From: Alphaproteobacteria bacterium
Lineage (GTDB): Bacteria; Pseudomonadota; Alphaproteobacteria; CAAHEQ01; UBA3637
Assembly (NCBI GenBank): GCA_017958225.1
Contig: JAGDDD010000013.1
Location: 31,863 to 95,862 of the forward strand
DNA: 64,000 nucleotides
Reading direction: 5' to 3'
Shown here: one piece after another, positions 7,874-35,965 of the stretch
Position numbering within the stretch: the stretch's first letter is position 1
Layout of the letters: every line of letters begins with the position of its first letter
The notes under the pieces: model-generated
The model's database searches: none
Told to the model about the DNA's origin: nothing
The model's input: the letters and a program-made list of their open reading frames with translations, nothing else
Translations under genes and position numbers: made by a program

Positions 7874-8056
7874 ATGCAGGCTGTTATTTTAACCGTTATC
7901 GGCATGGGATCGGTCTTTTTGTTCCTGTATCTTGTTATGTGCACGCTGGTCGGTGTGTTGTGGCTTGTGCGGCGGTTTGCAGCGGATGAGGCCGGCCTGA
8001 CGGGCGAAAAAGCGGCGGCTTTGGTGGGAATTGCTTTATCAAGGGGGATGAAATGA
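7874..8056 (+). CDS. oadG: Oxaloacetate decarboxylase gamma subunit (small membrane anchor)
   Basis: 60 aa, single TM. Sits immediately upstream of oadA with overlapping stop/start (ATGA). Confidence 0.55.
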   Translation: MQAVILTVIGMGSVFLFLYLVMCTLVGVLWLVRRFAADEAGLTGEKAAALVGIALSRGMK

Positions 8057-9816
8057 AAGTTGATATTTTATGCACGGCCTTTCGTGACGGGTTTCAATCG
8101 GTCTATGGCTCGCGCGTGTTGTCCAAAGATTTTTTGCCGATTGTGTCTATGGCCAAAACAGCCGGCATTCGTCGGTTTGAATCGGGCGGTGGCGCGGCCT
8201 TTCAGTCGGCTTTCTTTTATTTGAACGAAAACGCTTTTGATGTCATGGACGCGTTTCGCCAGGCGGCCGGCAAAGATGCTTATTTGCAAACTTTGGCACG
8301 CGGTATCAACGTTGTCGGTTTGGAATCTCAAAGCTCGGACATTATTCGCCTGCACGCGCAGTTGTTTAAAAAGCATGGGGTGACCGCGATTCGTAATTTT
8401 GATGCGCTGAACGATCCGGACAATTTGGCCTTTAGCGGTCAGTGTATTGTGGATGCCGGTCTAGAGCACCAGTTGGCGATTGCCATGATGTCGTTGCCGC
8501 CGGGAAGTCATGGCGCGCATGATCCTGACTTTTACGAAAACACCCTCAAAAAAATATTAAAAGCCAAAATACCGTTTCACTCGCTGGCCTTTAAAGATGC
8601 ATCGGGAACTTCGGTGCCCAGCGTGGTTTATGAGACGATTCGTCGGGCGCGTAACATGGTTGGGAAAAATGTGCCGATTGAGTTTCACTCACATGAAACG
8701 GGTGGCACGGGCTTGGCTTGCTATCTGGCGGCCTTAAACGCCGGCGCCAATATTGTTGATGTGTCGTTAGCGCCGGTATCGGGCGGGACCTGTCAGCCGG
8801 ATATTGCGACTTTGTGGCATGCGTTGCGCGGTACGGAGTTTGAACTGGATGTGGATATTGACGCGGTGATGCAGGTGGAAGAAGCCTTTAAGGACGCGAT
8901 GAAACCTTATTTCTTACCGCCGGAAGCGGTGCGTGTTGAGCCCAAGATTCCTTGGTCGCCGATGCCGGGCGGTGCGCTGACAGCGAATACGCAGATGTTG
9001 CGCGATAATAATTTAATGGATAAATATGCCGAAATTATTGCCGCTATGGAAGAGGTTGTGCGCAAAGGCGGTTATGGCACATCCGTGACGCCCGTGTCGC
9101 AATTTTATTTCCAACAGGCCTTTAACAATGTGGTGGTCGGCCCGTGGAAAAAAGTGGCGGAAGGTTATGGCAAAATGGTGCTGGGTTACTTTGGCAAAAC
9201 GCCGGTGGCTCCGGATGCCAAGGTGGTTAAACTGGCCTCTGAACAGTTGGGATTGCCACCGACGAAAAAATCGCCGCGTTTGATGAACGATGCTGATCCG
9301 AAAAAGGGAATCGCTGCCGCCAAAGCGCGCCTGAAGGAGCAAAACTTGCCCATCACCGATGAAAACATCTTTATTGTCGCTGCGTGTGGCGATAAGGGCT
9401 TGGCCTTTTTGCGTGGCGACGGCAAAGTGGCGGTGCGTTATGCGCAACAATCTCAAGCGCCGAAAGGTCCGCTCAATGTGGTGTTGGACGGCACGTCTTA
9501 TGAAGTTAAAGTGGAGGCCGGACAAGTGTTCGTCAATGGCAAGGCTTTGAATTATCAAGTGTCGGAAGGCAAGGAAGTGTCCTCTCCGACAAGCGCTGCA
9601 ACAGCGCAAGATGTGACGGCGCCTATGGCCGGAACCGTGACCAAACTGTTGGTTAAAGAGGGCGATAAAGTAGCGGCCGGACAAGCCTTGCTCATCTTGG
9701 AAGTGATGAAAATGGAAAACACGATTTCGGCAGAACAGGCCGGCGTTGTCAAAAAAATAGAGGTGGCCGAAGGGGCGCGTGTTGTCGCCGGGCAACCTTT
9801 GATTCGTTTGGGCTGA
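8053..9816 (+). CDS. oadA: Oxaloacetate decarboxylase alpha subunit (carboxyltransferase + C-terminal biotinyl domain, EVMKMEN)
   Basis: N-terminal RDGFQS, HSHETGG metal site, and a C-terminal biotin attachment motif AMKM-like (VMKM). Confidence 0.85.
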
Positions 9817-9829
9817 AAGGAGAAAGACA

Positions 9830-10960
9830 ATGGAAACATTGTGGGCGCTTTTACATCAAACGGGCTTAGCCGTTTTTCTGACAGACCCTGAAGGTTGGCG
9901 ACAGTTGGTGATGATTGTCGTTTGCTGTGTGTTGCTGTATCTGGGTATTGCGAAAAAGTTTGAGCCTCTGTTGCTGGTGCCGATTGCTTTCGGTGGTATG
10001 TTGGCGAACTTTCCTTTGGCCGGCATGACAGAGCCAGGTGGCGTGTTGTATGTCCTGTATCACATGGGTATTGAAAACGCGCTTTTCCCCTTGCTGATTT
10101 TTATCGGTATCGGTGCCATGACGGACTTTGGTCCGCTGATCGCCAACCCGAAGACTTTGTTGTTAGGCGCGGCTGCGCAATTTGGTATTTTTGCCACGTT
10201 GATTGGCGCCTATACCTTGGGCGGATTTACGATGAAAGAGGCGGCGTCTATCGGTATTATCGGGGGTGCTGACGGGCCGACCTCCATCTTTTTGACATCC
10301 AAATTAGCGCCTCATTTGTTGGCGCCGATTGCGGTGGCGGCTTATTCGTATATGGCTTTGGTGCCGATTTTGCAACCGCCGGTCATGCGCGCTTTGACGA
10401 CCGAAAAAGAACGTAAAATTAAAATGAAACAACTGCGTGCAGTGTCCAAAAGAGAGAAAATTATTTTCCCCTTTGTCGTGTTGTTTTTGTGCGCGCTTTT
10501 GTTCCCGCAAGCCACGCCTTTGGTCGGTATGTTGATGTTTGGTAATCTGTTACGGGAAAGCGGTGTTACCGCCCGTTTGTCCGAGACTGCGCAAAACGCG
10601 ATGATCAATATCGTGACGATTTTTTTAGGCCTGTCGGTCGGCTCTAAATTGACCGCGCAACAGTTTTTGACAACACAAACACTCATGATTGTGGTGTTAG
10701 GCGCGGCCGCCTTTGTGGTCGGCTCGGGCGCCGGGGTGCTGATGGCACGCCTGATGAACTTGTTTGTCAAAGAAAAAATCAATCCGCTGATTGGCTCAGC
10801 CGGTGTGTCGGCGGTGCCGATGGCGGCGCGCGTGTCGAACAAGTTAGGGCAAGAGGCCGATCCGAGCAATTATTTGCTGATGCACGCTATGGGGCCCAAT
10901 GTCGCCGGCACCATCGGCTCGGCTGTGGCTGCCGGTATCTTACTTGCGTTGTGTTCGTAA
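9830..10960 (+). CDS. oadB: Oxaloacetate decarboxylase beta subunit (Na+-translocating)
   Basis: 376 aa polytopic membrane protein with the OadB/GcdB-family sequence pattern. Directly follows oadA. Confidence 0.85.
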
Positions 10961-10969: not shown

Positions 10970-11464
10970 TTAGTGCAAACTTTTCAAGAGTAGTTGATAG
11001 GCTTTGGTCAGGTTTTTGAACTTTTCTTCCAACGCCTTGTCGCCACCGGTTTTATCCGGATGATATTTTTTGGCTAACGTCTTATACGCCTTTTTCAAAT
11101 CGCCGGTTGTAAAATTATCCGACAGGCCGAGCAAGCGCATCGCTGCCTGTTGTTCTTTGGTGTGGCGTGTTGCCCTGTGGTGTGCTTTGCCCAAAATGCC
11201 CAGCGGGTCCCACAAGCGATGATTATACAGGTCATTGACGCGCCATGTCGGACGACGCCCTACCTCGTCAAAACGAATGTGCGCTTCTATTTCTTCCGGC
11301 GACATACCGGCGTAATAATCCCAACTTTTGTTATATTCTTGGACATGCTCTAAACAAAACCAATAAAAAGACTTTAAACTGCGGTCTTTGGGCGCACGAT
11401 ATTCGCCCGCTTTTTTACAATCGGGGAAGTCACAAGGGCGATGATGTTTTTCTTCTTTGGGCAT
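10970..11464 (-). CDS. J-domain protein with N-terminal Cys/His zinc-finger-like region (CDFPDCKK...CLEH) and C-terminal DnaJ domain (KKYHPDK)
   Basis: HPD tripeptide inside a J-domain consensus at the C-terminus. Confidence 0.7.
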   Translation of the reverse strand: MPKEEKHHRPCDFPDCKKAGEYRAPKDRSLKSFYWFCLEHVQEYNKSWDYYAGMSPEEIEAHIRFDEVGRRPTWRVNDLYNHRLWDPLGILGKAHHRATRHTKEQQAAMRLLGLSDNFTTGDLKKAYKTLAKKYHPDKTGGDKALEEKFKNLTKAYQLLLKSLH

Positions 11465-11592
11465 AGTAAAATCAGTATATCGCGCTGTCGGATAAAAGGC
11501 AATGAGTTTGTATGAAAAGGGCGTATTCTCCGCCTTTTGTTATACTTTTTTGTGCCCTGTGTATTTTTTTTATAGCCACGCGATGCTTTTTT

Positions 11593-11601
11593 TGGTATAA
11601 T
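11593..11601 (+). promoter_or_regulatory. Extended -10 element TGgTATAAT upstream of the 11632 gene
   Basis: TGGTATAAT sits 30 nt upstream of the ATG at 11632. The ORF-track start at 11600 lies inside this -10, so the track start is probably not real. Confidence 0.4.
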
Positions 11602-11631: not shown

Positions 11632-12814
11632 CATGGATACCAAGAAGTTAAAACAAAATGCACCGGTTTTTATCCTATGGACGCTTGTCTATTGGGGCTA
11701 TATCCATTATTTTTTCTCGGTTAACTGGAACTTTCATATTTTTTCCGTTAAAGATTGGCGTTTCTTTTCGCAACAATGGGCGCAAGGCTGGGTTGTGGAA
11801 GGTGCGGATCAGTGGACCTTCATTTTAGTGGCGATGGCCGCTATTCCGGTATGGTATATCGTGCTGAAATTGTTGTTGCCTATTCCTTATCGCAAGATAT
11901 TTGAGGACCTGTTTTTTGACAGCATTTACAAAAAGAAAATGGCCCAGTTGCACAACACGGAAAAAGCGGCGGTTAAAAAACGCCCGTCTTATCGGGATGT
12001 GCGACCCAAAGAGTTGGCACATGGTCTGGCGACGCCGACAGAAAAAGAGCCGCCGGCAGATATGCCTCCGGTGCATCCGCAACCGGCCGCGGCACAGTCA
12101 GCGCCTATGGCCGAGCGCAAGTTGTCTGTGCCTGTTCCTGCCCCGTCTGATCCGTTCCATTTGCAGGACAGTTTATATTCGGATGAAGAACATACCGAAA
12201 ATGTGGCGGCGCCAGAGGCCGAGCCGGTGGTGCCTTTTGAAAATATGGAAACCGAGATACAACCTTTGTCCGAAGATTTGGCAAAAATTATGCAAGCTAA
12301 TTGCGAAGTCTTTTCCAATGTGGCTGTTAAAGATGCGAAAGTGTCTTTTGTGGCGGTGGGTAAAAAGACCGTTTATCTGTGCCAGGTTGATGACGCTGAA
12401 GGCGATTGGTTGGCCGATGAAGATCCGTTTGGATCGGAAGCGCCTTTGTGGTTTTCGGATAGATCTCATCGCGTATCGCCTGTGTTCGAATTATTAAAAA
12501 TCCAGGCTGATGTGGAAAGCCTGTTGAAAAAGCAGCATATTGAGGCGGCCTGTCAATCGTTGTTGGTGAAAACGCAAGGCGTGATTATCAATGCCGAAGA
12601 AATGTTGTCCAAATGGAAAAATGTTGGCGTTATTGTGTGTCGCTCTCAAAACGGAGGGTCAGCGGCTTTGGCGTCGTTTACGGATTCCTTCCCGGACGAG
12701 ACAGCGCCGACGCAGGCATTTGTTAAAAAAGTTAAAGACGCTTTACATCTGACGGCCAAAAAAGCCGCGGCTAAGGGGGATAGCGCTAAACGCACGAAGA
12801 AGCCAAAAGGTTAA
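11632..12814 (+). CDS. Hypothetical membrane protein: 2 N-terminal TM helices, Pro-rich linker, C-terminal globular domain (weak NERD-like pattern), Lys-rich tail
   Basis: Coding-like ORF directly upstream of and co-oriented with the T4CP gene (10-nt gap). Confidence 0.5.
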
Positions 12815-12823
12815 GGAGAGATC

Positions 12824-14986
12824 ATGTTTGTCCGCCAAAATGAATTTAAAGAACGCGACCAAGCCACTCTGTTTTTAATGCGGTGGTTCGTATATGCCGT
12901 TCTGGCCGGTCTGTTGTCTGCCGGCTTGTTATTGCTGTTTATTTTCATGATATCCAACGGGTTGAGTTCCAACACCTTAAGCCAAATGGGCAAGCTGATT
13001 GCCTCATGGTTTAAAATGCCTTCATCCTTTTTCCGCACCTATTTGAAGTTTTGGGAAAGAACGGCGCATACGTCCGGTGCCATCAAAGTTTTGCCTTATG
13101 CGCCTTTCTTTGTTACGACTATGACGTTTACGTATGCGCTGATCGCCAACCCGTATGATTTTATGCTCAAAACCTTTGGTGGTGGCCGTATTGCGACCTA
13201 TCGCGACATTGTCAAAATGAAGTTGTTTAACGGCTTTGTCATTGTGTTGGGTAAGTTCCGCGGTAAGTTATTGATGTTGCCGGAAACTTTGTCCGCGTTG
13301 GTGGTGGCGCCTCCGGGCACCGGTAAAACCGTGGCGGTCGTTATTCCGACGATTTTGGAATCGCCCAAGATGAGTATTATTGTGAACGACCCGAAGCCTG
13401 AATTGTGCTTTAAGACTTCCGGTTATCGCGCGACGCAAGGGCCTGTGTTTGTCATCAACTGGGGTTGTTTGGACGAGCCGGATAAAGGTATCTATTATCC
13501 GTCGTGGAACCCGCTGTCGCCCAGATGTTTGCCGGCAGACGAAAACGAGCGCGGCTTGTATATCGACAGTATGGTGAAGGTGTTGATTGCCGAGCCTTCC
13601 GGCTCTGCGGACCCGCACTGGACGAACAAAGGTCGTGACGCGTTGTCCGGCTTCTTGTGGTTTATTTCCAATAAATGCGAAAGAGCGCGTGCCAATGATT
13701 ATTTCATCTCTCGTTTGTTGGACAATGCGCTGGATGAAGAAGATGCGCAGGTGTTGAGTTCGTATTACAGCAATATGAGCACGCCGGAATCGCAAATGGC
13801 GTTGGCGGCGTTGCAGAAAGGCGAATTGACGCAAGACAATTATGTGCCTATCGGAACATGGGCCGGCTTGCCGCAAGAATGGTATGGCTCTGAACCGTGT
13901 ATCGCTATGATCAACGACTGGCTGAACGATGCGCAAATGACAATTTCTGCTGACTTGAAACGGCGTGCGGATGAGGGCGACCAATCCGCCTTGTATGCTG
14001 ATCCGATGCGCGACGTGCTGGAATACGCGGTCAATGAGTGTATGCAATACAACTACTCACACCGTGCGGTGATTGAGCTCAACCAGTTGGCAGCGACTCC
14101 GGATAAAGAGCGCGGATCTATTTTGTCTACGGCTTTGGGCGGTATTAACGTGTTTAAGAACGCATCCGTGATTGCGCGAACACGCTTTTCCGACTTGTCG
14201 TTTAGAGATTTGCGCGGTATGCGCGATCCGATTACCGGCGAAATGAAACCGATTGCGGTATATTTGAGTATTGACCAGGTAAAAGCCCGCGCCTTGAACC
14301 CCATTACCGGTGTGTTTGTGGAGTTGATGAGCTCGTTCTTGATTGCTAACCCGCCTGATTTCGTTGGCAATGACGGACAAAAGGCCGGTCCTTATCCGGT
14401 GTTGTTCGTGCTGGACGAGTTTCCGCAAATGCCGAAGTTGGCCGCTGTGAAAGATGGTCCGGCGGTCGGCCGCGGACAGAAGGTGTCTTACTTGCTGATT
14501 GGGCAGGATTTGGGTCAGATTTCCGGTCAATATGGTAAGGACGATTTGGAAACAATTATCACCACCACCGCGGCTAAAGTTATTTTGGCACAAAACAACG
14601 AACAAACGGCAGAACGTTTCTCGAAGATGATTGGTTCTAAAACCATACAGAATACCAGCTATTCTGCACAAGAGGCTATTTTCGGCTTTAATGTTAAAAT
14701 GAGCAACAACGTGTCGCGCTCCTTGCAAAGTCAAAACGTGGTCGGCACATCGTCAATGATGAGCTTGGATTCGAAAAAGCAATATGTGTTGATGCAGGGC
14801 TTTTTGAACAGGCCGATTTTGGCCGATTCGCCGCGTTGGTTCTTGGATAAAAAGATGACCAAGAAATGCAGCCTGCCGCCTTCACCATTTGTGCCGGCGT
14901 GGATTGTGGCGCAACGCGAAGATACCGAAGTTGAAAAATTAGCGGCCGCTTTGACGCAGGAAGTCAAGGAAATGGAAGAAGGATAG
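12824..14986 (+). CDS. Type IV secretion coupling protein (VirD4/TraG/TraD family ATPase)
   Basis: N-terminal TM region, Walker A in the VirD4 context LVVAPPGTGKTVAVVIPTIL...SIIVNDPKPE, and Walker B VLFVLDEFPQM. Confidence 0.75.
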   Translation: MFVRQNEFKERDQATLFLMRWFVYAVLAGLLSAGLLLLFIFMISNGLSSNTLSQMGKLIASWFKMPSSFFRTYLKFWERTAHTSGAIKVLPYAPFFVTTMTFTYALIANPYDFMLKTFGGGRIATYRDIVKMKLFNGFVIVLGKFRGKLLMLPETLSALVVAPPGTGKTVAVVIPTILESPKMSIIVNDPKPELCFKTSGYRATQGPVFVINWGCLDEPDKGIYYPSWNPLSPRCLPADENERGLYIDSMVKVLIAEPSGSADPHWTNKGRDALSGFLWFISNKCERARANDYFISRLLDNALDEEDAQVLSSYYSNMSTPESQMALAALQKGELTQDNYVPIGTWAGLPQEWYGSEPCIAMINDWLNDAQMTISADLKRRADEGDQSALYADPMRDVLEYAVNECMQYNYSHRAVIELNQLAATPDKERGSILSTALGGINVFKNASVIARTRFSDLSFRDLRGMRDPITGEMKPIAVYLSIDQVKARALNPITGVFVELMSSFLIANPPDFVGNDGQKAGPYPVLFVLDEFPQMPKLAAVKDGPAVGRGQKVSYLLIGQDLGQISGQYGKDDLETIITTTAAKVILAQNNEQTAERFSKMIGSKTIQNTSYSAQEAIFGFNVKMSNNVSRSLQSQNVVGTSSMMSLDSKKQYVLMQGFLNRPILADSPRWFLDKKMTKKCSLPPSPFVPAWIVAQREDTEVEKLAAALTQEVKEMEEG

Positions 14987-15592
14987 TTGATGACGACTTC
15001 AAAACTGAACGATGTTTGTTTTGTGACGGATAAACTGATACACGACCTGTCGTATTGGGAAAATCTGTTCCAAAAACTGAACTTTCCCGGGATGGATTTG
15101 GTGGAAGCCACGGCCTATCCGTTGAGCATCGGGGAGCGCAGAGAAGCCAAAAAGGCTTTTCGGCAGATACGTCGTGAGTTTTTAAACCTGTTGATTGCTG
15201 AACGTTTGAACGATTTAAAAGAAGCCGGTTGTGATGAGAGCGCCATCTTGAGTTTGCGTCGCGGCGTCATGCCCGAAAACTTTAATATTCACATCAAGAT
15301 TCCGTTTGATTATACGGGGCAGGTTGATTTTTCCAATTTGGTCTTTATGCAAAGTTTGCCCTATCACAATGAAATCCATCGCTTTATGAATCTGCAAATG
15401 GCGGGGATGGAGCTGAATGCTCGTCCGCGTAAATTGTATATCCCTGTTCCGGTCGGCATGGTGTATTTGCCGCATACGGAAATTACAGGCTCGGGCGGAA
15501 AAAATAAAAGCGACCGCAGTGTGACCGCGGGCATGACAACCTCTTTCTTACAAAGTATGGCCTTAAAGACCATGAGAGGAGGCCGCGGATGA
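14987..15592 (+). CDS. Hypothetical protein (201 aa); start overlaps the T4CP stop
   Basis: ATGATGA overlap with the upstream gene. No family recognised. Confidence 0.5.
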   Translation: MMTTSKLNDVCFVTDKLIHDLSYWENLFQKLNFPGMDLVEATAYPLSIGERREAKKAFRQIRREFLNLLIAERLNDLKEAGCDESAILSLRRGVMPENFNIHIKIPFDYTGQVDFSNLVFMQSLPYHNEIHRFMNLQMAGMELNARPRKLYIPVPVGMVYLPHTEITGSGGKNKSDRSVTAGMTTSFLQSMALKTMRGGRG

Positions 15593-16062
15593 TTATGTTG
15601 CGTCAATTGTTGGATCGTCTTTACAGGACGGGCGGCATTATTTTTCCGCCGGCCAGTGCTGACGAGGGCGGCTTTTTGCGCTTGACCTTGGCGCGTCATA
15701 AAATCACGATGCCGTCGGCCGAGTATTTTCAATTTTTATCTTTAACCGACGGGTTGATTTTCCACGGCCTGCGTTTTTATGGCGTGCATTCGCATAAACG
15801 GGAAAAGGCCAATTACACGTTTCCTTCCTTGTTGGAAGTGAATATGAACTTTTATGATCAAAAGCGCGCGAATACGTTTTTGATTGTCGGCGAAACAGAT
15901 GAAGATTATGTCACGTATGATTTCCGTGATAAGTGTTATCATTTGGTGGACAAAATGGATTTGCGTTCCGATTTGGTGATGGAGCGTTTCTTTGACATTT
16001 TGTATCTGTTGTCCGAAGATATTGCCAAGTCGGCGCAGATGCCTTTGCGCTCGGCTCCGTAG
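15589..16062 (+). CDS. Hypothetical protein (157 aa), weakly SUKH/SMI1-KNR4-like (possible immunity-type fold)
   Basis: Start overlaps the previous stop (ATGA). The pattern LTDGLIFHGLRFYG...FLIVGETDEDYVTYD resembles SUKH cores. This is a by-eye resemblance only. Confidence 0.45.
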   Translation: MIMLRQLLDRLYRTGGIIFPPASADEGGFLRLTLARHKITMPSAEYFQFLSLTDGLIFHGLRFYGVHSHKREKANYTFPSLLEVNMNFYDQKRANTFLIVGETDEDYVTYDFRDKCYHLVDKMDLRSDLVMERFFDILYLLSEDIAKSAQMPLRSAP

Positions 16063-16172: not shown

Positions 16173-16193
16173 TATATCATGAAAGGAAAGTCC

Positions 16194-18851
16194 ATGACAA
16201 AATGGGTGTATACATTTGGAAACGGCAAAGCGGAAGGCGATGCCTCTATGCGCAATTTATTGGGTGGTAAAGGTGCCAACCTGGCGGAAATGTCCAGCAT
16301 TGGTTGTCCTGTGCCTCCGGGCTTCACTATTACGACTGAAGCATGTACATATTATTATAAAAACGGTAAGGCTTATTCTGACGAATTAAAAGAACAAGTC
16401 ATGGCCGGTTTAAAAGGCGTGGAAGAATTGATGGGCCGCAAGTTTGGCGATCCTGAAAATCCTTTGTTGTTCTCTGTGCGTTCCGGCGCTCGTGTTTCTA
16501 TGCCGGGCATGATGGACACCATCTTGAACTTAGGTTTGAACGATCAAACAGTGGAAGGTTTGGCGAAAGCGTCTAACAATCCGAAGTTTGCTTACGACTC
16601 CTATCGTCGTTTTATTCAGATGTATTCTGATACCGCTATGGGCGTGGATATTCACAAGTTTGAAGCGGTTTTGGATCGCGTTCGTGAAGAAAACGGTTAC
16701 AAGCATGATAACGAAATGACCGTTGAACAATTGAAAGCGGTCATTGAAGAATACAAGAAAATCGGTGTTGCCGAAGGCAAGCCCGTTCCGCAAGATGTGT
16801 ATGAGCAGTTGTGGGGCGCCGTCGGCGCAGTGTTCGGCTCTTGGATGAGCGAACGCGCTATTTTCTATCGTCGCTTGAACAACATCCCGGGGGATTGGGG
16901 CACCGCTGTTAATGTGCAGTGCATGGTGTTCGGTAACTCCGGCGACAATTCTGCAACGGGTGTGTGCTTCTCTCGTGACGCGGCCACCGGTGAAAATTAT
17001 TTCTATGGCGAATATTTGAAAAATGCACAAGGTGAAGACGTGGTGGCCGGTATTCGGACGCCGCAACAAATCTCCCGCATTGGTAATGAACGTCGTGGTT
17101 TGAACTTGCCCTGCATGGAAGACGAGTTCCCCGAAGTTTATAAACAATTGTGCGATATTCGTGCGAAATTGGAAAAACACTATAAAGATATGCAAGATAT
17201 GGAATTTACTGTCCAAGACGGTAAGTTGTTCATGTTGCAGACTCGTAACGGTAAGCGCACCGGTTTAGCGGCTTTGAAAGTGGCCGTGGATATGGTGCAT
17301 GAAGGCCTGATTACTAAAGAAGAAGCGGTAACACGTGTTGAGCCGGGACATTTGGATCAATTGTTGCACCCGATGTTTGACAAGTCCGCGAAACGTGATG
17401 TGATTGCGACCGGTTTGCCGGCCTCTCCGGGTGCCGCTGTCGGCCAAATCGTGTTTAGCGCCGCTGACGCCGAAAAGGCGGCCTCTGAAGGCAAAAAGGT
17501 TGTGTTGGTCCGTGTGGAAACATCTCCGGAAGACATTGCCGGTATGCATGCGGCTGAAGGTATTTTGACAGCTCGTGGCGGTATGACCTCTCACGCAGCT
17601 GTGGTGGCGCGTGGTATGGGTAAGCCCTGCGTGTCCGGTGTGTCAGATTTGCGCATTGACTATGATGCTCAATTCTTGAAAATCGGCGACAAAGTTTTGA
17701 AGGCGGGCGATATGCTGTCCTTGGACGGAACAACCGGTCAAGTGATGGTCGGCGCTTTACCGTTGGTCGTGCCCGAAATGGTCGGCGACTTTGGCGAATT
17801 CATGGGCTGGGTCGATTCCATCCGTAAGTTGCGCGTGCGCGCCAATGCGGAAACTCCGGCCGATGCGACAACAGCGAAGAAGTTCGGCGCCGAAGGTATC
17901 GGTTTGTGCCGCACAGAACATATGTTCTTTGACCCGCACCGTATTAACTTCATGCGCGAAATGATTTTGGCGAACAATGTCGAGGATCGTAAGAAAGCCT
18001 TGGCAAAATTGTTGCCGTTCCAACGCAAAGACTTTGTGGATTTATTCACAATTATGGCCGGTCTGCCCGTGACCATTCGTTTGTTGGATCCGCCTTTGCA
18101 TGAGTTCTTGCCGCATAAGCACGAAGAACAAGTGGCGTTGGCGCAGCAAATGGGTGTGACGGTGGAAGAAATCGTTGCTCGGACAAACAGTTTGAGCGAA
18201 GCGAACCCGATGTTGGGTCTGCGCGGTTGCCGTCTGGCTGTGGTGTTCCCCGAAATCTGCGAAATGCAGACGCGTGCGATTATCGAGGCCGCTTTGGAAG
18301 TGTCCGCTCAAGGTATCGCTGTTGAACCGGAAATTGAAGTTCCTTTGATTTCTTCCAAGAAAGAATTGGAAATCTGCAAAGCGATTATCGACAGCACCGC
18401 TGAAGAAGTCTTTAAAGAAAAAGGCGCTCGCGTCAAATACTTGGTCGGTACCATGATTGAGTTGCCGCGTGCGGCGTTGTTGGCCGGCGAAATTGCCGAG
18501 TTGGCTGACTTCTTCGAATTCGGAACCAACGACTTGACACAAACCACATTGGGTATGAGCCGCGATGACGCAGGCGCCTTCTTGCCGGTTTATGTCAATA
18601 AAGGCATTTACGAATTGGATCCGTTTGCCAGCCTGGATACAACCGGCGTCGGCAAACTCATTCAAATGGCTTGTGAAGCCGGACGCAAAGCGAAATCCGG
18701 TTTGTATTTGAGCATCTGTGGTGAGCACGGTGGTGATGCGAAGTCCATTGAGTTCTTGAACTCTTGCCTGGACGGCGTGTCCTGCTCTCCGTTCCGCGTG
18801 CCTTTGGCGCGTTTAGCGGCAGCACAGGCTGCGGTCAAATCAGCCAAATAA
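16194..18851 (+). CDS. ppdK: Pyruvate, phosphate dikinase
   Basis: MTKWVYTF...GGKGANLAEM N-terminus, phosphohistidine-domain and PEP-utilising-domain motifs. The ATG at 16194 after AAAGGAAAG is preferred over the ORF-track start at 16179. Confidence 0.95.
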   Translation: MTKWVYTFGNGKAEGDASMRNLLGGKGANLAEMSSIGCPVPPGFTITTEACTYYYKNGKAYSDELKEQVMAGLKGVEELMGRKFGDPENPLLFSVRSGARVSMPGMMDTILNLGLNDQTVEGLAKASNNPKFAYDSYRRFIQMYSDTAMGVDIHKFEAVLDRVREENGYKHDNEMTVEQLKAVIEEYKKIGVAEGKPVPQDVYEQLWGAVGAVFGSWMSERAIFYRRLNNIPGDWGTAVNVQCMVFGNSGDNSATGVCFSRDAATGENYFYGEYLKNAQGEDVVAGIRTPQQISRIGNERRGLNLPCMEDEFPEVYKQLCDIRAKLEKHYKDMQDMEFTVQDGKLFMLQTRNGKRTGLAALKVAVDMVHEGLITKEEAVTRVEPGHLDQLLHPMFDKSAKRDVIATGLPASPGAAVGQIVFSAADAEKAASEGKKVVLVRVETSPEDIAGMHAAEGILTARGGMTSHAAVVARGMGKPCVSGVSDLRIDYDAQFLKIGDKVLKAGDMLSLDGTTGQVMVGALPLVVPEMVGDFGEFMGWVDSIRKLRVRANAETPADATTAKKFGAEGIGLCRTEHMFFDPHRINFMREMILANNVEDRKKALAKLLPFQRKDFVDLFTIMAGLPVTIRLLDPPLHEFLPHKHEEQVALAQQMGVTVEEIVARTNSLSEANPMLGLRGCRLAVVFPEICEMQTRAIIEAALEVSAQGIAVEPEIEVPLISSKKELEICKAIIDSTAEEVFKEKGARVKYLVGTMIELPRAALLAGEIAELADFFEFGTNDLTQTTLGMSRDDAGAFLPVYVNKGIYELDPFASLDTTGVGKLIQMACEAGRKAKSGLYLSICGEHGGDAKSIEFLNSCLDGVSCSPFRVPLARLAAAQAAVKSAK

Positions 18852-20334: not shown

Positions 20335-20799
20335 ATGAAAACAACTCAAAGCGTAAAGGCGTCTGAAATCAAAAGACAATGGTACTTGATTGACGCCGAA
20401 GATCTTGTCCTGGGACGGTTGGCGAGTCGCATCGCGGCCATCTTGCGCGGCAAGAACAAAACAAATTACACTCCGCACATGGATTGTGGCGATTATGTCG
20501 TTGTCATCAATGCGGACAAAGTCGTTTTAACCGGCTCCAAATGGGCTAAAAAAGTGTATCATCACCACACAGGCTATATCGGTGGTATCAAAGATATTCC
20601 CGCCGAGGCTGTGAAACAGGCTCATCCGGAACGCGTGCTTTACAAAGCGGTGGAACGTATGCTCTCTCGCAACAAACTGGGCGCGGCTCAATTGAAGAAA
20701 TTGCGCATTTATGCCGGACCGGAACATCAACATGCGGCTCAAAATCCTCAAGTGTTGGATATCGGGGCGCAAAACAGAAAGAATAAAAGGAGCGTCTAA
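20335..20799 (+). CDS. rplM: 50S ribosomal protein L13
   Basis: Full-length L13 pattern ([31 protein letters not shown]...). Confidence 0.95.
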
Positions 20800-21470
20800 T
20801 GGCTACGACAAAAACAACTGCTAAAAAAGCAACGACAAAGAAAACAGCCGAGAAAAAGCCGGTTGAAAAGAAAACTGTCGCTAAAACCGCAACCAAAACA
20901 ACCGCCAAAAAGACAGCAACAAAACCTGTGAAAACAGAAGTTGTTGTCAAAAAAGCGGTCAAAGCGAAAGCCGAAAAGGTTGTCGAATTAAAAGACTTGA
21001 AAGCCGCTGTCGAACAGGCCGCTGCTCCTGCCGAAAAGAAGGTGGAAGAAGCCCCTGTCAAACGTGAGCCGAAAAAAGATAAGTTCGGTCGTGCGTTTGC
21101 TGCCGGTAAGCGCAAAGACGCGATTGCTCGTGTTTGGTTAAAATTGGGCAAAGGCAAAATTACCGTCAATGGACAAGATGTCAATACGTATTTTGCTCGT
21201 CCCGTGTTGCAAATGATTATCAATCAACCGTTTGTGGCAACAAGCCGCGTCGGTCAATATGATGTCGAATGCACGGTGCGCGGTGGTGGCCTTTCCGGTC
21301 AAGCCGGTGCATTGCGCCATGGTATCAGCCGTTGCTTGGATGCGTTTGAGCCCGATTTGCACTCTGTGTTGCGCAAAGGCGGATTCTTAACGCGTGACTC
21401 GCGTGCGGTTGAACGTAAGAAATACGGTAAAGCCAAAGCCCGTCGTTCTTACCAATTCAGTAAGCGTTAA
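20799..21470 (+). CDS. rpsI: 30S ribosomal protein S9 with a ~90-aa Lys/Ala/Thr-rich N-terminal extension
   Basis: The S9 core begins at ~[19 protein letters not shown] and ends ...RRSYQFSKR. The N-terminal part is a low-complexity AKT repeat. Confidence 0.9.
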
Positions 21471-21523: not shown

Positions 21524-22621
21524 TTATTCCCGCTCCATTTCGGACGATATGCGAGAGTTGGGAGAGGGCCAATGCTGGCTGTCCACTTTTCTTGGCAACT
21601 CTTTTAAGACGGGCGTTAAGAGTTCTGGCGGTAATTTGGAAGAAAAGCCGGTATGATAGACGACATTTGTTTTGACAATCGGGTCTACCCCCTCTATCTG
21701 CAATGCCGTCAAAGCACGGCGTGCTTTGCGTTCGGCATCCTGTTTTGCACCGCGCAGGAAACGATCCATGTGGTAAGCGGCGTTGCCGTCACGTCCGGTT
21801 TCTGCTCCGTTTTCATCATAACTGATAAAAGCATCTTCCTTGCCATTTAAGAATAAAGTTTTGCGAGTCACGTGACCTTGCATGTCATAATTTATGCGCG
21901 CGGTCAGATTGTCGTTGTGAAAAAACTCTTCTTTATACACGGTGCCGTCCGGCCAATAAGTTTTCCACAAACCTTCCTGTTTGTCGTTTATCATCAGACC
22001 TTCGGCATAAACAGAACCGTTTTCGCGATACACAATGTAAGGGCCATACAATTTATCTTTTCTATAAGACATTTTTTGAATCAGGCGAGCCCTCTCGTCT
22101 TTAACTTCCCAGTCACCGACACGCTGATTGTTCTGAATCTGTCCAAAGGCCATATTGTGTGGCTCAGCAGATTTGAATTGAGGCGGTTGTTGTGCGTCTG
22201 GTTTCTTGCCATTTACATCCATGTTGATGCGCACGACATCCTGTCCGAACGCCAGCATTGAGGCTTCGCCATGTTTTCCCATTTCTACCACGGGTTTTTC
22301 ATCATACAAAAGGGCAACAGTGTTCTTTTCGGGTGTTGTCGCATGCACAACTTCGGCCTTGCCAACAACAATTTTTTGATAAGATTCTGTTTCAGACGGG
22401 GCTGTTTTATAGATGTCCACCAACTCCTTTTGGCTATAGCGCACCGTGATATGTTCGTTGGCCAAGGGTTTAGGCTCTGTGGTTTTTTGCTCTTTGATAT
22501 TAAAAGGAATAAACGCTGCCGCCCCCAGTAAAAAAGCGGTTATACGAGAGTGAGCCATGGTGTCTATACGTTGAAAAAAACGACGCATCCGTCCTTCACG
22601 TTTAGGTTGTTGTTCTGTCAT
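21524..22621 (-). CDS. Exported MORN/YwqK-like repeat protein (hypothetical)
   Basis: Signal-peptide-like N-terminus (AFLLGAAAFIPF). Repeated YxxGxxxGxWxxYxxxG-like units in the C-terminal half. The true start may be internal. Confidence 0.4.
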   Translation of the reverse strand: MTEQQPKREGRMRRFFQRIDTMAHSRITAFLLGAAAFIPFNIKEQKTTEPKPLANEHITVRYSQKELVDIYKTAPSETESYQKIVVGKAEVVHATTPEKNTVALLYDEKPVVEMGKHGEASMLAFGQDVVRINMDVNGKKPDAQQPPQFKSAEPHNMAFGQIQNNQRVGDWEVKDERARLIQKMSYRKDKLYGPYIVYRENGSVYAEGLMINDKQEGLWKTYWPDGTVYKEEFFHNDNLTARINYDMQGHVTRKTLFLNGKEDAFISYDENGAETGRDGNAAYHMDRFLRGAKQDAERKARRALTALQIEGVDPIVKTNVVYHTGFSSKLPPELLTPVLKELPRKVDSQHWPSPNSRISSEMERE

Positions 22622-22840
22622 AAAAGCCTCCTTACTATATTGCGGAACACTTTCAGTTTAGACAACAAAGGCCCTGTTGTCAAGGATTACATTTTTTTCT
22701 TGACTTTTGATGTGTATCGGGTATAATGAGCGCACTTGATAGCTCCTTGTCCGCCATTTGCGGACTATGCCACGGGCCGGGTTTTCATGGTGAAAGCTTT
22801 GGTTTTAACAAGTGGCCGAGATATCCATAAGGGGAATAAA

Positions 22841-23227
22841 ATGTCTTTTTATGAACATATTTTTATTGCACGCCCTGATTTGACCCCCGATCAAGTCAAT
22901 GCCTTAGCCGACAAATACGAGGCTGTCATTGTCAAAGACGGTGGTAAGGTCACAAAGCGTGAAAACTGGGGATTGCGGACCCTGGCCTATAAAATCGCAA
23001 AAAACAAAAAAGGTTATTATGTTTTGATGAACGTGGATGCGCCTGCCGCTGCGGTGGCCGAATTGGACCGCCTGATGCGCGTTGATGAGGACGTCATCCG
23101 CTATTTGACAGTGAAAGTGGATGCCTTGGAAGAAGGTCCGTCCGCGATGCTGTCTCAAAAGAATCACAAAACCTATGATGAGTTCGAGTTTGATATGAAC
23201 GCTGAAGGAGAGGGTGTCAATGGCTGA
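22841..23227 (+). CDS. rpsF: 30S ribosomal protein S6
   Basis: [14 protein letters not shown]... S6 signature. RBS AAGGGGAA lies before the ATG at 22841; the ORF track over-extends to 22736. Confidence 0.9.
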
Positions 23228-24271: not shown

Positions 24272-24362
24272 GGATGGGTGGCCGAGCGGTTGAAGGCGCA
24301 CGCCTGGAAAGTGTGTTTAGGTCTAAAGCCTAACGCGAGTTCGAATCTCGCCCCATCCGCCA
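24272..24362 (+). tRNA. tRNA-Ser (anticodon GGA), long variable arm, encoded CCA
   Basis: GGATGGG acceptor stem with complementary CCCATCC-G-CCA. Anticodon stem CACGC/GTGTG with loop CTGGAAA. Long extra arm, and a T-arm GGTTCGAATCC-like (GAGTTCGAATCTCG). Confidence 0.9.
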
Positions 24363-24403: not shown

Positions 24404-24444
24404 TAATAAAATTGTATAGACAAAATAATTTTTATGATTACAAT
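24404..24444 (+). promoter_or_regulatory. Conserved palindromic promoter/operator element, copy 1 (TAATAAAATTGTATAGACAAAATAATTTTTATGATTACAAT)
   Basis: One of three near-identical 40-41-bp elements (24404, 27463, 29035). Half-sites TAGACA/TGTCTA double as -35 TAGACA and -10 TACAAT with a 16-nt spacer. Confidence 0.5.
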
Positions 24445-24462
24445 GACGGATGGAGAGAGTCA

Positions 24463-26580
24463 TTGAAATACGGACGCGCTTTTGTGAAATTATGTCTGGT
24501 CCTGATCCTGTGCCTAGGATTGGGCGCATCAGTGGCGTATGCTCAAAACCAGAAGACCACGCCGGCGCCAACGACCTTGCAATGTGGCGCGAGGGACGCA
24601 TGCCGGCCGGCCATGGAGGCCTGGTGTTATCAAAACAAGACGATATTGGATCGATATCTGACCGGTAAGATTTTAAAAAGACCGCCTTCTGTGTGGCGTA
24701 AAATTGCTAGTTTTGTTTTTCTAAATTCCTCTCTTGGCGGTTTGACTTATAAATACATTATCTCGCGCCTCGTCGAAGTCGATGTGACCACGGACGAATA
24801 TTACCGGTATTTGGATCAGGTCAATTGTCAACAACAGTTTTGTTGTTTTGCTTTGGGCGTGGATAAAGGCCTGTTGAAAGATTTTTGGGACATATGGCAT
24901 GGCTCGGACATTGAGGATTTGGATAATGCTTATAATCCGGTGTGGGAGCTGACTAAATCCAAAGACTATTTGTCTAGGGAAGGATTCACGCAGGGATATG
25001 AAGATCAAATCAAGAAAGATATTGACGGACTGGATGTGCCCGAGAATATCAGAAAAGCCTTGAAAAAAGGCGTCGATAAAGGGTGGTCGCCTTATCAAAC
25101 TTTGGCTGCCATGACTTCAGAGATGTTGGAACGCTACAAAGGCTCCGGCATTACTAAACAACTTTGGAACTTTGTCAAACATTCGTTTGGATCGGCCTGG
25201 GAAAGCGTCGTCAATTCGCTGCGAAAATCCGAATTCGCTGAAGCGGAAAAAAACGGAAATGTGCTGGAATGCCCCTATATTTTGCAGGGCATTTTTGATC
25301 AGGTCCACACCAGCGTTGATTGTTGGTTGTGTCCTTTGTTGGAAGACATTTTTGTTTCCGGCAACGCGTTTGCCTCGGCGTTATACACGCAAATCAGCAA
25401 AGCGATGCTGGCGTTGCTGGGCGTGTTTGCCGCTCTGACAATTATGTGGATGGTTTTCCGCGTCTTAGCAGACTTTTCCGGCAAAGAGTCGCGCGCCTTT
25501 ATCAAAAAAACTTTCTTTTTATGTTTGCGCGTGGCGATTATTGCCGTGATTTTAGTGCAATCGCCCAAAGTCGTCGGAGATTTGTTCTTTACGCCATTTG
25601 TGCATTTAAGCACAGGTCTTGGGATGGAGGTGATGGCGGGCACGCAGTTGGAGGTCAATCACGCGCATCTCAACTATTTCAAAGAAAACTTTAATAACGA
25701 AGATAGCGTTATGGGCTGCACACATTCGCACCCCGATATTTGGTCGAATGAGCAAAAGTTGATGTTTTCAAAGACAACCTGTAATACTTTGGTTGGCTTG
25801 GTGCAACTTATGTCTATTGAAATAGCAACGCCCTTCCACTATGGCCAGACACTTATGTCTTACGCCTTTAGCCACGGTCGGCCATCGGAAATTATGCCGA
25901 AATTTAAACTCTTTTTCACCGGCCTGGTGATTGTGATTATTTTTGTCGTGCTGTTGGTGGCTATTCCGTTTAAGATTGTGGATATTTTTGTGCAGTTGGT
26001 CGCTTTGTGCGCCTTAAGCCCGTTGGCCATTACGTTGTTTGCGTTCCCCGCGACTCGTTCGTATACAAAGGGTGTGTGGAAGATGTTCACCAGCTGCCTG
26101 TTGCAATTGGTGATGGTGTCATTGATGGTCGCGCTGGCCGTGGCTTTCTTTACCGGCAAGACGGATGATGAGACGTTAGCGCTGTTTCTACAAAATCGCA
26201 ATGACGAGGCCTATCAACGCATTGGATTAGGCAGTATGTCCTTTTTGGGTTTGATTGCGTTGGGCTATGTCGCATATAAGTTGCTGAACAGAGCGGTTGA
26301 GTTCGCCGAGCAATTAGGCAGTGCGGTCAAATTGGCTATGTTTGAGCCGATGACCCGGGCGACGGCCGCCACGACGGCTAAGGTTGCGGGAGAGTTCACG
26401 GGCGCTGTTGCTGGTCCAACCATAGACAAAGGCAAAGACTGGGCCAAAAAGCAGGTGGATAAAGGCACAGCCGCCTTGAAACGCCCTGTCAGAAGAGGGC
26501 TACGCAACGGCGCTTATGTTGTCGTCAAAAGCGCCTATCAATTTAAAGATAAATTTAAAGAGTGGCTTAAATCGATATAA
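24463..26580 (+). CDS. Paralog 1 of a 5-member tandem family of large polytopic membrane proteins (putatively VirB6/TrbL-like). Signal peptide and Cys-rich periplasmic N-domain
   Basis: The N-terminus KYGRAFVKLCLVL... is conserved with paralogs 2 and 3. Motifs C..C.P.MEAWC.QN, DCWLCPLLE, MGCTH...TCNTLVGLVQ, VPFKVVDIFVQL and LFAFPATR.YT are shared. The TTG at 24463 follows GGAGAGAG; the ORF-track start at 24412 lies inside the promoter palindrome. The family assignment is tentative. Confidence 0.5.
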   Translation: MKYGRAFVKLCLVLILCLGLGASVAYAQNQKTTPAPTTLQCGARDACRPAMEAWCYQNKTILDRYLTGKILKRPPSVWRKIASFVFLNSSLGGLTYKYIISRLVEVDVTTDEYYRYLDQVNCQQQFCCFALGVDKGLLKDFWDIWHGSDIEDLDNAYNPVWELTKSKDYLSREGFTQGYEDQIKKDIDGLDVPENIRKALKKGVDKGWSPYQTLAAMTSEMLERYKGSGITKQLWNFVKHSFGSAWESVVNSLRKSEFAEAEKNGNVLECPYILQGIFDQVHTSVDCWLCPLLEDIFVSGNAFASALYTQISKAMLALLGVFAALTIMWMVFRVLADFSGKESRAFIKKTFFLCLRVAIIAVILVQSPKVVGDLFFTPFVHLSTGLGMEVMAGTQLEVNHAHLNYFKENFNNEDSVMGCTHSHPDIWSNEQKLMFSKTTCNTLVGLVQLMSIEIATPFHYGQTLMSYAFSHGRPSEIMPKFKLFFTGLVIVIIFVVLLVAIPFKIVDIFVQLVALCALSPLAITLFAFPATRSYTKGVWKMFTSCLLQLVMVSLMVALAVAFFTGKTDDETLALFLQNRNDEAYQRIGLGSMSFLGLIALGYVAYKLLNRAVEFAEQLGSAVKLAMFEPMTRATAATTAKVAGEFTGAVAGPTIDKGKDWAKKQVDKGTAALKRPVRRGLRNGAYVVVKSAYQFKDKFKEWLKSI

Positions 26581-26588: not shown

Positions 26589-26819
26589 TTAAGTGTGTGT
26601 GCGATTTTGCGTGGTTGGTGTGGGCGCCGCGTTTTCGTTGATCTGTTCCTGTGGAGAAGGTTGCGCTGTTTTACTGCGCTCGTCCAGCGCTTGTGTCATC
26701 TGTCCTGCCGAAGATTCTTTGAAGCTGGCGATTTGTTTTATTACGTTGGGCACTTCCTTACACAATGTGTTTCGTCGAGCACCAAGGTTCTCTCCTATCT
26801 TTTCCAAATTGTCGCTCAT
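26589..26819 (-). CDS. Hypothetical small protein (76 aa)
   Basis: ORF with an RBS-like context, convergent with paralog 1. No family recognised. Confidence 0.35.
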   Translation of the reverse strand: MSDNLEKIGENLGARRNTLCKEVPNVIKQIASFKESSAGQMTQALDERSKTAQPSPQEQINENAAPTPTTQNRTHT

Positions 26820-26828
26820 AATGTCTCC

Positions 26829-27446
26829 TTATATTGTTAAATTTTTTAAAAATTGGGCCAGTTCATCGTTCCACCGCTTGCCTTTGTCCGCGCTGATAAT
26901 GGTTTTGCCTTTCTCATCTGTTGTTATAATTGGCGAAAAATAAGCCGGAGTCGTTGTCAGCAATTCCCAGGCCTTGTCAGGTTGATGGGCGGCCATATTG
27001 ATATAGTTCAGCAACAGGGCGTGCGCATCCACCGGGAACTTGGCCGCTTTGATTTTTTCTTCACAAGCGGCGATAATGGCATCACGATCGGCCAGATAAT
27101 TGTTGAGTTGCTTGAGGGCTTGTTTGCCTTCGGCCAATAATGTGCCATCCAGGCGCGGGCGTTTCGTTGGGTCCATCAAACCAATCACTTCCCCCAAAAG
27201 CAAACGCCAAAAGGATGTCGGCGACGGATATTTTTTATCCAGGCTGGCGGCCATGGCTTCCGGATTTGGGTCTTCCACTTCCAACAGAGAACAGGCGGTA
27301 TCCACCAAATCCTGCATCATTACCTCTTCGTCCGGGTCTTGTTCCACCTCTTCCAGGGTTAAACTGAAATCGGGGGGTGGCTCAATGAGGTCTTGATTTT
27401 CCCACAAAGCCTTGTATAAGCTGGTAATAAGTTCTGTTTGCGCCAT
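26829..27446 (-). CDS. Hypothetical acidic protein (~205 aa from MAQTELITSLYK...)
   Basis: The ATG at 27446 follows AAGGA. Divergently transcribed from the paralog 2 promoter/operator. Confidence 0.5.
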   Translation of the reverse strand: MAQTELITSLYKALWENQDLIEPPPDFSLTLEEVEQDPDEEVMMQDLVDTACSLLEVEDPNPEAMAASLDKKYPSPTSFWRLLLGEVIGLMDPTKRPRLDGTLLAEGKQALKQLNNYLADRDAIIAACEEKIKAAKFPVDAHALLLNYINMAAHQPDKAWELLTTTPAYFSPIITTDEKGKTIISADKGKRWNDELAQFLKNLTI

Positions 27447-29034: not shown

Positions 29035-29075
29035 AATAAAATTGTATAGACAAAACAATTTTTGTGTCTACAATA
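29035..29075 (+). promoter_or_regulatory. Conserved palindromic promoter/operator element, copy 3 (TAATAAAATTGTATAGACAAAACAATTTTTGTGTCTACAAT)
   Basis: Best palindrome of the three (TTGTATAGACAAAA / TTTTGTGTCTACAA). Starts 14 nt after the paralog 2 stop. Confidence 0.5.
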
Positions 29076-29093
29076 GTGCTGTGGAGAGGCGAA

Positions 29094-35957: not shown

Positions 35958-35965
35958 GGTTGATT

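Follow-up and report, generated by a model that had tools for sequence, protein, structure and literature searches.

A conserved four-gene cassette around a VirD4/TraG-type coupling protein in uncultured gut Alphaproteobacteria

Genes of the cassette

Between positions 11633 and 16062 of a 64,000-nt stretch of DNA from an Alphaproteobacteria bacterium (assembly GCA_017958225.1, contig JAGDDD010000013.1, positions 31,863 to 95,862 of the forward strand; hereafter the window), four consecutive genes on the plus strand, here named A to D, specify a type IV coupling protein (T4CP) of the VirD4/TraG family together with three partners that recur beside it in related genomes. Gene A (11633..12814) encodes a 393-aa membrane protein, gene B (12824..14986) the 720-aa T4CP, gene C (14990..15592) a 200-aa protein with a predicted toxin-derived HNH (beta-beta-alpha-metal) domain, and gene D (15589..16062) a 157-aa protein assigned by sequence to the SUKH superfamily (YrhA family). 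The source genome was read through this single window and its relatives as fetched loci, window and loci together amounting to ~1.4 Mb. The window represents an alphaproteobacterial chromosome, encoding GcrA, DnaA, PolA, Der and ribosomal proteins.

The arrangement of the genes suggests that A to D are transcribed as one operon. An earlier note, made from the letters of the window, had proposed a single unit with a 10-nt gap and overlapping stop and start codons. All four open reading frames (ORFs) do lie on the plus strand, in an order kept in relatives, and the overlap stands as proposed, the stop of C and the start of D sharing an ATGA at 15589-15592 (4-nt overlap); the spacing between A and B, however, is 9 nt. 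The stop of B is at 14986, and the ATG at 14990 is the most likely start of C (alternative TTG at 14987), whose closest database homologs (P0121-P0124) are 200 aa long. The longest ORF for gene A opens at 11600, but a sigma-70-like promoter candidate on the plus strand (11573..11601, TAGCCA-17-TGgTATAAT) overlaps that ATG and a near-identical database protein (P0169) has 393 aa; the start of A is therefore placed at the ATG at 11633, essentially the 11632 given previously. The promoter candidate, recognized by its match to the consensus alone (10 of 12 positions plus an extended -10 TG), falls within the 168-bp gap that follows a divergent gene for a DnaJ-domain protein.

Sequence comparison identifies B as a genuine VirD4/TraG-family T4CP of a divergent lineage, in agreement with the earlier identification of the 720-aa protein. 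Scans of A to D against Pfam and NCBIfam, run at E values up to 1, matched B to PF02534 (T4SS-DNA_transf; E 5e-54, 184.3 bits, cut-off 20.1), PF12696 (TraG-D_C; 1e-21, 77.5 bits, cut-off 22) and PF10412 (TrwB_AAD_bind; 6e-20, 72 bits, cut-off 20.5), and all its matches are of VirD4/TraG type. Both nucleotide-binding motifs are intact: among 80 relatives, Walker A (APPGTGKT, residue 162) is conserved in all and Walker B (VLFVLDEF, residue 526) in 78. An NDPKPE motif is found at residue 188. Two N-terminal hydrophobic segments span residues 25-43 (Kyte-Doolittle hydropathy 2.69) and 89-107 (1.36), and the C-terminal tail is acidic, with a family median isoelectric point (pI) of 4.2 and a net charge of -5 to -48 in all T4CPs of the family.

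B remains under every NCBIfam equivalog cut-off (VirD4, IncP TraG, F TraD, CD1115 and others), its best score being 138.8 bits where the CD1115 family requires 250, with 122 against 728 for VirD4 (PRK13897). Its sequence matched no T4CP in the PDB, and the B family profile returned nothing at E up to 0.01. The closest plasmid-encoded T4CPs reside on alphaproteobacterial megaplasmids, at 34% identity; the best of these, from Erythrobacter aureus (NZ_CP031358), aligns with 34% identity over 86% of the protein and is encoded at the end of a canonical virB2-B3-B4-...-B8-B9-B10-B11-virD4 operon. Together with the Pfam matches, this operon position indicates that B is a VirD4-type T4CP of type IVA ancestry and not DotL-like. 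The earlier note had named DotM/DotN-type partners in a standard Dot/Icm layout as an arrangement that would refute its reading; such a layout was rejected, since the scans returned no family for A or C and only VirD4/TraG-type families for B, the presence of DotM, DotN and DotL models in the libraries not having been verified.

Gene A, upstream of B, is predicted to encode a membrane protein with hydrophobic helices at residues 12-30 and 64-82. In an alignment of 32 homologs this two-helix module is Trp-rich (NWxF...W...GWVI..SDWxF) and is followed, directly after helix 2, by a basic KKKSYKxxRP motif (KKxSYxxxRP). The positive charge found at the N-terminus and after helix 2 would place both ends of the protein in the cytoplasm. 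A variable, low-complexity linker of Pro and acidic residues then leads into a C-terminal domain of ~160 residues (about 215-375), marked by an invariant GDWLADE..F..E.PLWFS...HR.SP and by G.IINAEDM..W. The AlphaFold2 (AF2) model of this domain, with a predicted local distance difference test (pLDDT) score of 87.8, displays the alpha-beta-beta-beta-alpha-beta core predicted for a PD-(D/E)xK fold. The weak likeness to NERD domains claimed for A in the earlier note thus holds at the level of the modelled fold, but no Pfam or NCBIfam family was matched by A, NERD included, and a PDB search with the single sequence gave nothing usable.

The catalytic D...(D/E)xK signature was not found in A, the 32 homologs presenting no invariant or near-invariant Lys, and in the window protein the position of the beta2 Asp is occupied by Ser, so the domain appears to hold no canonical nuclease site. 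It is acidic, with a family median pI of 4.5. A 160-aa gene following the Erythrobacter T4CP was considered as a homolog of A and rejected (tblastn E 0.059, hhalign probability 2%). A stand-alone 165-aa paralog of the two-helix module occurs directly upstream of A in some relatives (L088:3914-4411 and L076:8136-8630).

Gene C had been left as an uncharacterized 201-aa partner in the earlier note. Neither Pfam nor NCBIfam holds a family matching the window protein, and the single-sequence PDB search gave no usable match; a nuclease-family Pfam match was likewise absent from C and 29 aligned homologs, which yielded only five unrelated single-member matches. Across these 30 diverse sequences the family motif reads G..PEN..vH.K.P..YGG..dF.N.vLiQ..P.H..IH (core motif of C: PEN..vH[LI]K.P..YGG..dF.N.vLiQ..P.H..IH), with H101 invariant and N116, H126 and H130 at least 90% conserved. 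The C family profile touches the pyocin AP41 DNase right at its HNH motif (E 0.66). In the AF2 model the core is predicted with a pLDDT of 85-90 and the tail is disordered; when this model was submitted to Foldseek, six of the eight top matches were HNH domains, each individually non-significant (E at least 0.49), and the fold matches are mostly to HNH nucleases (Cas8-HNH, teneurin, Rhs2-CT, colicin E7/E9 and the Gme HNH nickase).

A search with the C profile over 1.84 billion representative proteins matched 504 proteins, 221 of them at E up to 1e-10. Outside the cassette family, what is matched (profile positions ~55-165) is often the extreme C-terminus of a long protein, with E values down to ~1e-15. 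Ten such long proteins were scanned: five carry PT-HINT, PT-TG, RHS repeats, MuF_C or Portal_Mu, and nine have a weak Pfam HNH match (PF01844) at the aligned position. RHS, PT-HINT, PT-TG and MuF are textbook polymorphic-toxin architectures (PMC3482391), and the alignment of C with the toxin-domain proteins (E ~1e-12 to 1e-15) runs almost gapless over ~115 residues. On this sequence evidence, which is decisive for C, the protein is homologous to the HNH domains found at the C-termini of polymorphic toxins.

The putative active site differs between the two groups. Where toxin relatives have VHHK.P, cassette-type C invariably has vH[L/I/M/V/Q/R]K.P, and in colicin E7 the second His of this pair (H545; PMC4104000) serves as the general base. 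Since L, I, M, V, Q or R stands in its place, the general base is likely to have been lost in the cassette clade. Conversely, the last His is lacking in toxin relatives (H..IT), while cassette-type C keeps the first His, the Asn and the downstream H..IH pair. C would accordingly retain a colicin-like three-His metal site deprived of its catalytic base; it may bind DNA or metal and yet not cut, or it may use another base. The ~40 C-terminal residues are basic, conserved and predicted to be disordered (GSGGKxKxDRSVxAG...MPGR, pI about 10-11), and the N-terminal extension varies from 0 to ~230 aa among species. The window holds no paralog of C. The idea that the tail is a modular signal shared with other proteins was not supported, a hidden Markov model (HMM) of the tail having found no further carrier in the ~1.4 Mb sampled; for a role of the tail as an export signal this result is neutral.

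With 72.4 bits, the product of gene D passes the cut-off of 55 set for the NCBIfam YrhA family (NF038335), which bears out the SUKH/SMI1-KNR4 pattern earlier noticed in the 157-aa protein. D itself has no Pfam match, and searching the PDB with its single sequence gave nothing usable; among 31 D homologs, however, weak Pfam matches were obtained to SMI1_KNR4 (18 homologs, best 9e-5), SUKH_6 (20) and SUKH_5 (11), and a profile of the D family reaches Lin2918, a SUKH structure (2icg), at E 0.17. These similarities place D among the immunity-type proteins of the SUKH superfamily. Imm-SUKH is recorded as the immunity partner for ten HNH toxin families (PMC3482391).

Relatives of C and D are also found away from any T4CP. 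One locus (L086:6768-9484, GCA_039814445.1) has no T4CP nearby but holds a D homolog preceded by two HH-type relatives of C, the first 191 aa long and the second, of 519 aa, containing two C-like domains; this locus may preserve the ancestral, toxin-type state of the pair. In another (L091), a C-D pair of the H-L type stands alone. These stand-alone pairs suggest that C-D is a module of toxin-immunity type, either acquired by the T4CP operon or born beside it. In the first locus, genes for a 492-aa protein with an internal duplication and for a pentapeptide-repeat-like protein precede the C-like tandem.

Conservation of the cassette and its secretion system context

Relatives of B were collected from 359 species-representative genomes, and synteny was assessed in the best 80, whose T4CPs are 56-73% identical to B. 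Nearly all of the latter are labelled as uncultured Alphaproteobacteria, Rhodospirillales/Rhodospirillaceae or 'proteobacterium', and they come from the gut of human, ruminant, horse, rabbit and chicken hosts. A few records bear evidently mislabelled bin names (Lactobacillales, Holdemanella), and the set includes Candidatus Scatocola faecigallinarum, of a genus that NCBI taxonomy places in Rhodospirillales.

By tblastn, the order A-B-C-D is present in essentially all of the 80 best loci, and identities to the window proteins range over 24-48% (A), 56-73% (B), 31-58% (C) and 23-54% (D). Unsupervised ORF clustering and a survey of flanks extending 10 kb to either side, performed on 82 loci, recovered only four near-universal families, namely those of B (82 loci), A (78), C (76) and D (72). 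A lies upstream of the T4CP in 78 of the 82 loci, and D comes after C in 72. Co-linearity of A-B-C-D thus holds in 76-82 of the 82 loci, more than expected by chance. A more distant lineage (L088), in which C was detected only at a profile E value of 1e-24, has all four genes in this order as well.

The surroundings, in contrast, change from genome to genome. In the window, the cassette is bounded by genes for the alpha and beta subunits of oxaloacetate decarboxylase (8053-10960), beyond the DnaJ-domain gene, and for pyruvate phosphate dikinase (16179-18851); these flanks are common to none of the related loci, and in one of them (L081) the cassette instead adjoins the ftsZ-ftsA-ftsQ-ddl-murB-murC cluster. 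The cassette has a GC content of 0.47-0.50, the same as the rest of the window, and its surroundings contain no integrase, no adjacent tRNA and no flanking direct or inverted repeats beyond chance size, the sole tRNA found lying far away at 24272. The synteny check suggested in the earlier note therefore shows a cassette whose order is kept in relatives while its flanks are not, and which bears no mobile-element signatures; carriage on a mobile element was rejected on the basis of the flat GC, the distant tRNA and the lack of flanking repeats.

Across hundreds of species, the cassette thus gives the appearance, at the sequence level, of being under purifying selection, and this selection, the intact motifs and the changing surroundings indicate that it is not a decaying remnant. 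No published description of the cassette, or of a type IV secretion system (T4SS) in these gut Alphaproteobacteria, was found in the literature, and the cassette constitutes a T4CP module with a clade-wide partner set not previously described.

B had earlier been considered an orphan T4CP. That label holds only for the immediate flanks, which are indeed devoid of T4SS genes; such genes occur at greater distance, and in the genome B is not an orphan. A tandem array of five VirB6/TrbL-like genes, all on the plus strand, starts 8.3 kb downstream of the cassette (24412-26580, 27528-29021, 29064-31157, 31159-33063 and 33066-34883). Pfam TrbL matches three of the five products, two of them above the gathering score; BLASTP identifies the five as paralogs, and each has 7-10 hydrophobic segments. 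They are probably channel subunits of the T4SS served by B. A relative represented by a 486-kb contig (L083) has VirB4 at a distance of 6.6 kb from the cassette, together with a gene of VirB3 size (97 aa) that gives no Pfam match, and Dxs, RsuA and other housekeeping genes separate this VirB4 islet from it. The window array and the spacing of the VirB4 islet in this contig together show that the T4SS is chromosomal and split into islets scattered among housekeeping genes. No relaxase was found in the window or within the 10-kb flanks of the 82 loci, whole genomes not having been inspected for relaxases.

The array begins 50 nt after a tRNA-Ser gene (24272-24362), and downstream of it lie a double helix-turn-helix regulator (34998-35957) and four ORFs without family assignment (35954-40089). 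Between its first two genes, a gene on the minus strand (26829 to ~27440) encodes a protein whose C-terminus is 36% identical over 78 aa to a family of ~370 aa. At least 14 related loci encode a member of that family at 2-4 kb upstream of the cassette, and the minus-strand gene is possibly a further T4SS-associated gene. Two plus-strand ORFs that overlap it (26593-26943 and 27100-27396) are probably spurious.

Possible roles of the cassette

We tentatively read the cassette as a substrate-recruitment module of a T4SS, with C as cargo, D as immunity protein or chaperone and A as membrane co-receptor, retaining as the leading interpretation the effector-recruitment platform that had been one of the two proposals of the earlier note. 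B would be the coupling ATPase, acting as a hexamer at the inner membrane. A, which would share the topology of B (N-terminus inside, two helices, cytoplasmic domain), would pair with it in the membrane and serve as co-receptor through its cytoplasmic domain, which is acidic, of nuclease fold and probably non-catalytic. C would be a small DNA-targeting protein derived from an HNH nuclease toxin, a dedicated cargo co-transcribed with its T4CP, and D a SUKH immunity partner keeping C harmless and export-competent in the producing cell. The basic, disordered tail of C would serve as the signal, passed on to the acidic tail of the T4CP, to A, or to both. The analysis shows the family and fold assignments, the synteny, the conservation and the T4SS context; transcription as an operon, the contacts between the proteins, the secretion of C and whether C still cuts DNA are matters of inference.

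Substrates of VirB/D4 systems typically carry positively charged C-terminal signals. The charges of the cassette proteins are complementary in this sense, the pI of the C tail (~10-11) facing that of the T4CP tail (4.2) and of the A domain (4.5), and the SUKH gene overlaps the stop codon of an HNH-family gene, as expected of an immunity partner. Were C the cargo, these common gut Alphaproteobacteria would possess a T4SS dedicated to injecting a DNA-targeting protein into neighboring bacteria, host cells or protist cells, which would add a new participant to microbial antagonism in the gut.

A number of observations weigh against this recruitment reading. Cassette-type C lacks the general-base His and is thus possibly not an active nuclease. 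It is also conserved in the manner of a machine part, at 31-58% identity, in single copy and in a fixed position, and is not polymorphic. The clade of Scatocola-like sequences has a C without the tail and yet retains the cassette, and the tail HMM revealed no other carrier in the window and loci. Moreover, C-D pairs occur apart from any T4CP, as seen in L086 and L091.

The main rival reading is that C and D were domesticated as non-secreted adaptors of the coupling complex, comparable to IcmS, IcmW and DotN on DotL, with A in a DotM-like role and other effectors as the real substrates. The clade-wide loss of the general-base His, with three metal-ligand positions and the Asn kept, the strong conservation of C as a single-copy gene fixed directly after the T4CP, the nuclease fold of A, likewise without its canonical Lys, and the clade that keeps the cassette without the C tail all point this way. 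We nevertheless consider this domestication unlikely. A basic, disordered tail resembles a substrate signal more than a docking domain, the N-terminal extension of C (0 to ~230 aa) varies in the manner of effectors, and a C-D pair of the H-nonH type persists without an adjacent T4CP in L091. We know of no reported adaptor with the fold of C. If C and D are adaptors after all, the cassette documents the recycling of conflict systems into machinery.

The two nuclease-fold proteins bracket an ATPase of the DNA-translocase type, which raises a further alternative, namely DNA handling independent of a relaxase. Binding or nicking of DNA at the membrane would then fall to A and C, with C under the control of D, and the T4CP would move the DNA for export or exchange. 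The failure to detect a relaxase in the window or within 10 kb of the 82 cassettes, in a survey in which whole genomes were not inspected, agrees with such a role, as do a small RHH_4-type gene upstream of A in 23 loci, of a fold known from relaxosome accessory proteins, and the existence of HNH nickases, with the Gme HNH nickase among the fold matches of C. Both putative sites, however, are non-canonical, A having no conserved Lys and C no general-base His; the nearest relatives of C are toxins and not processing enzymes, and SUKH partners are characteristic of toxins. DNA handling of this kind is improbable.

A broader proposition takes in adaptors and relaxase-free DNA hand-over alike, holding that the HNH-SUKH pair and a membrane pseudo-restriction-endonuclease are built into the coupling complex itself; we regard it as doubtful. 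If true, the pair would be the first toxin-immunity pair domesticated into secretion machinery, and the cassette a new coupling-complex architecture that is core to abundant, uncultured Alphaproteobacteria of the human and animal gut.

Still less probable than DNA handling is that C-D is a toxin-antitoxin-like module hitch-hiking beside the T4CP with no part in secretion. Solitary C-D pairs in other lineages (L086, L091) and the tight overlap of the two genes, typical of such pairs, would suit a hitch-hiker, yet adjacency to the T4CP is kept in 76 of 82 loci at T4CP identities of 56-73% and with the outer flanks fully turned over, and the likely loss of the catalytic base speaks against a working poison.

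Finally, a decaying conjugative remnant or an anti-phage defence system around a T4CP-like ATPase (the earlier note had proposed, as its other option, a remnant of a conjugative or defence element) could appeal to the absence of directly adjacent T4SS genes and to the nuclease folds in the cassette, but is very improbable in view of the intact ORFs and invariant Walker motifs, the retention of the cassette in hundreds of species, the flat GC, the lack of an integrase, flanking repeat or adjacent tRNA, and the T4SS genes nearby. As a defence system it was rejected, PADLOC yielding no meaningful match (a 15-bit mads_8 match on B).

Relation to known systems and neighboring genes

T4CPs decide what a T4SS exports, and few of their complexes are understood, namely relaxosome-TraD, DotL-DotM-DotN-IcmSW and VirD4-XVIPCD. 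The cassette would add a fourth, compact and strongly conserved T4CP partner set, made up of two nuclease folds with altered sites and one immunity-type protein. As a system of four proteins it is small enough for reconstitution, from organisms that are not yet culturable.

Like B, the T4CPs of P-type VirB/D4 systems, such as that of Erythrobacter aureus, belong to the same Pfam families and have two N-terminal segments and Walker A and B motifs; unlike them, B lies outside a virB operon and heads a four-gene unit of its own. In the X-T4SS of Xanthomonadales, the X-Tfe effectors carry an XVIPCD domain of ~120 residues, and the ~40 residues that follow the HNH core of C are considered too short for such a domain. 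That system otherwise resembles B together with C-D, VirD4 recruiting X-Tfe toxins that are encoded with X-Tfi immunity proteins and that include the nuclease TfdA (PMC6536674, PMC8740702, PMC11253643). It differs in having many dispersed and variable effectors, where here there is one fixed C-D pair within the T4CP operon, and in belonging to Xanthomonadales killers, the present system being that of gut Alphaproteobacteria, with a C that lacks the general-base His.

Polymorphic toxin systems with HNH/EndoVII toxin domains at the C-terminus and Imm-SUKH immunity (Zhang et al. 2012, PMC3482391) share with the cassette the toxin C-termini to which the core of C aligns and the SUKH nature of D. 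In the cassette, on the other hand, C is free-standing, without an N-terminal trafficking domain, repeats or spare cassettes, and is conserved, single-copy and of the HxK instead of the HHK type.

Two further systems offer parallels in gene arrangement. In the Dot/Icm system of Legionella, icmP (dotM) lies directly upstream of icmO (dotL), and the order A-B is likewise that of a membrane partner followed by the T4CP; the concept of an anchored partner combined with small soluble partners is also alike. Here, however, the channel genes are VirB6-like (type IVA), and the folds of A and C differ from those of the known partners. The cassette would thus work in a manner like the X-T4SS and the DotL-DotM-type complexes while belonging to neither. 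The rvh T4SS of Rickettsiales is scattered among housekeeping genes and has five tandem VirB6-like paralogs (rvhB6a-e), and both the separate chromosomal islets and the tandem multiplication of VirB6 recur here. The rvh VirD4 gene follows rvhB8-B11, whereas the VirD4-type B is encoded apart, together with A, C and D, and the organisms here are gut metagenome-assembled genomes. A parallel of another kind is provided by Agrobacterium, in which VirE2 is a secreted DNA-binding substrate and VirE1 its small chaperone: under the substrate-recruitment reading, C-D would similarly be a substrate kept inert by a co-encoded partner, with no homology between the two pairs and with other folds.

The DnaJ-domain gene that diverges from the cassette (10970..11464, minus strand; Pfam DnaJ 2.9e-15) encodes a protein whose N-terminus is rich in Cys and His. 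Although frequent, this neighbor is not universal, being adjacent and divergent in 33 of the 82 loci, and a functional tie between it and the cassette is unproven. In 23 loci a gene of 93-98 aa, which the window lacks, sits between the DnaJ-domain gene and A (for example L002:7723-8274 and L002:8412-8708); in L083 this small gene has a Pfam RHH_4 match.

Elsewhere in the window, repeat proteins of the MORN, Sel1 and TPR classes are encoded at 21524-22621 (minus strand), 43021-43761 (minus strand) and 47808-49577 (plus strand). These repeat classes are often tied to interactions with eukaryotic cells, and the proteins could be relevant to what the T4SS targets. Three ribosomal protein genes, all on the plus strand, have longest ORFs much exceeding their Pfam domains: S9 (20799-21470), S6 (22736-23227) and L9 (23419-24021). 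The S9 ORF, for instance, spans 223 aa with the Pfam domain at residues 103-223, and these long ORFs represent either over-extended start codons or genuine lineage-specific extensions.

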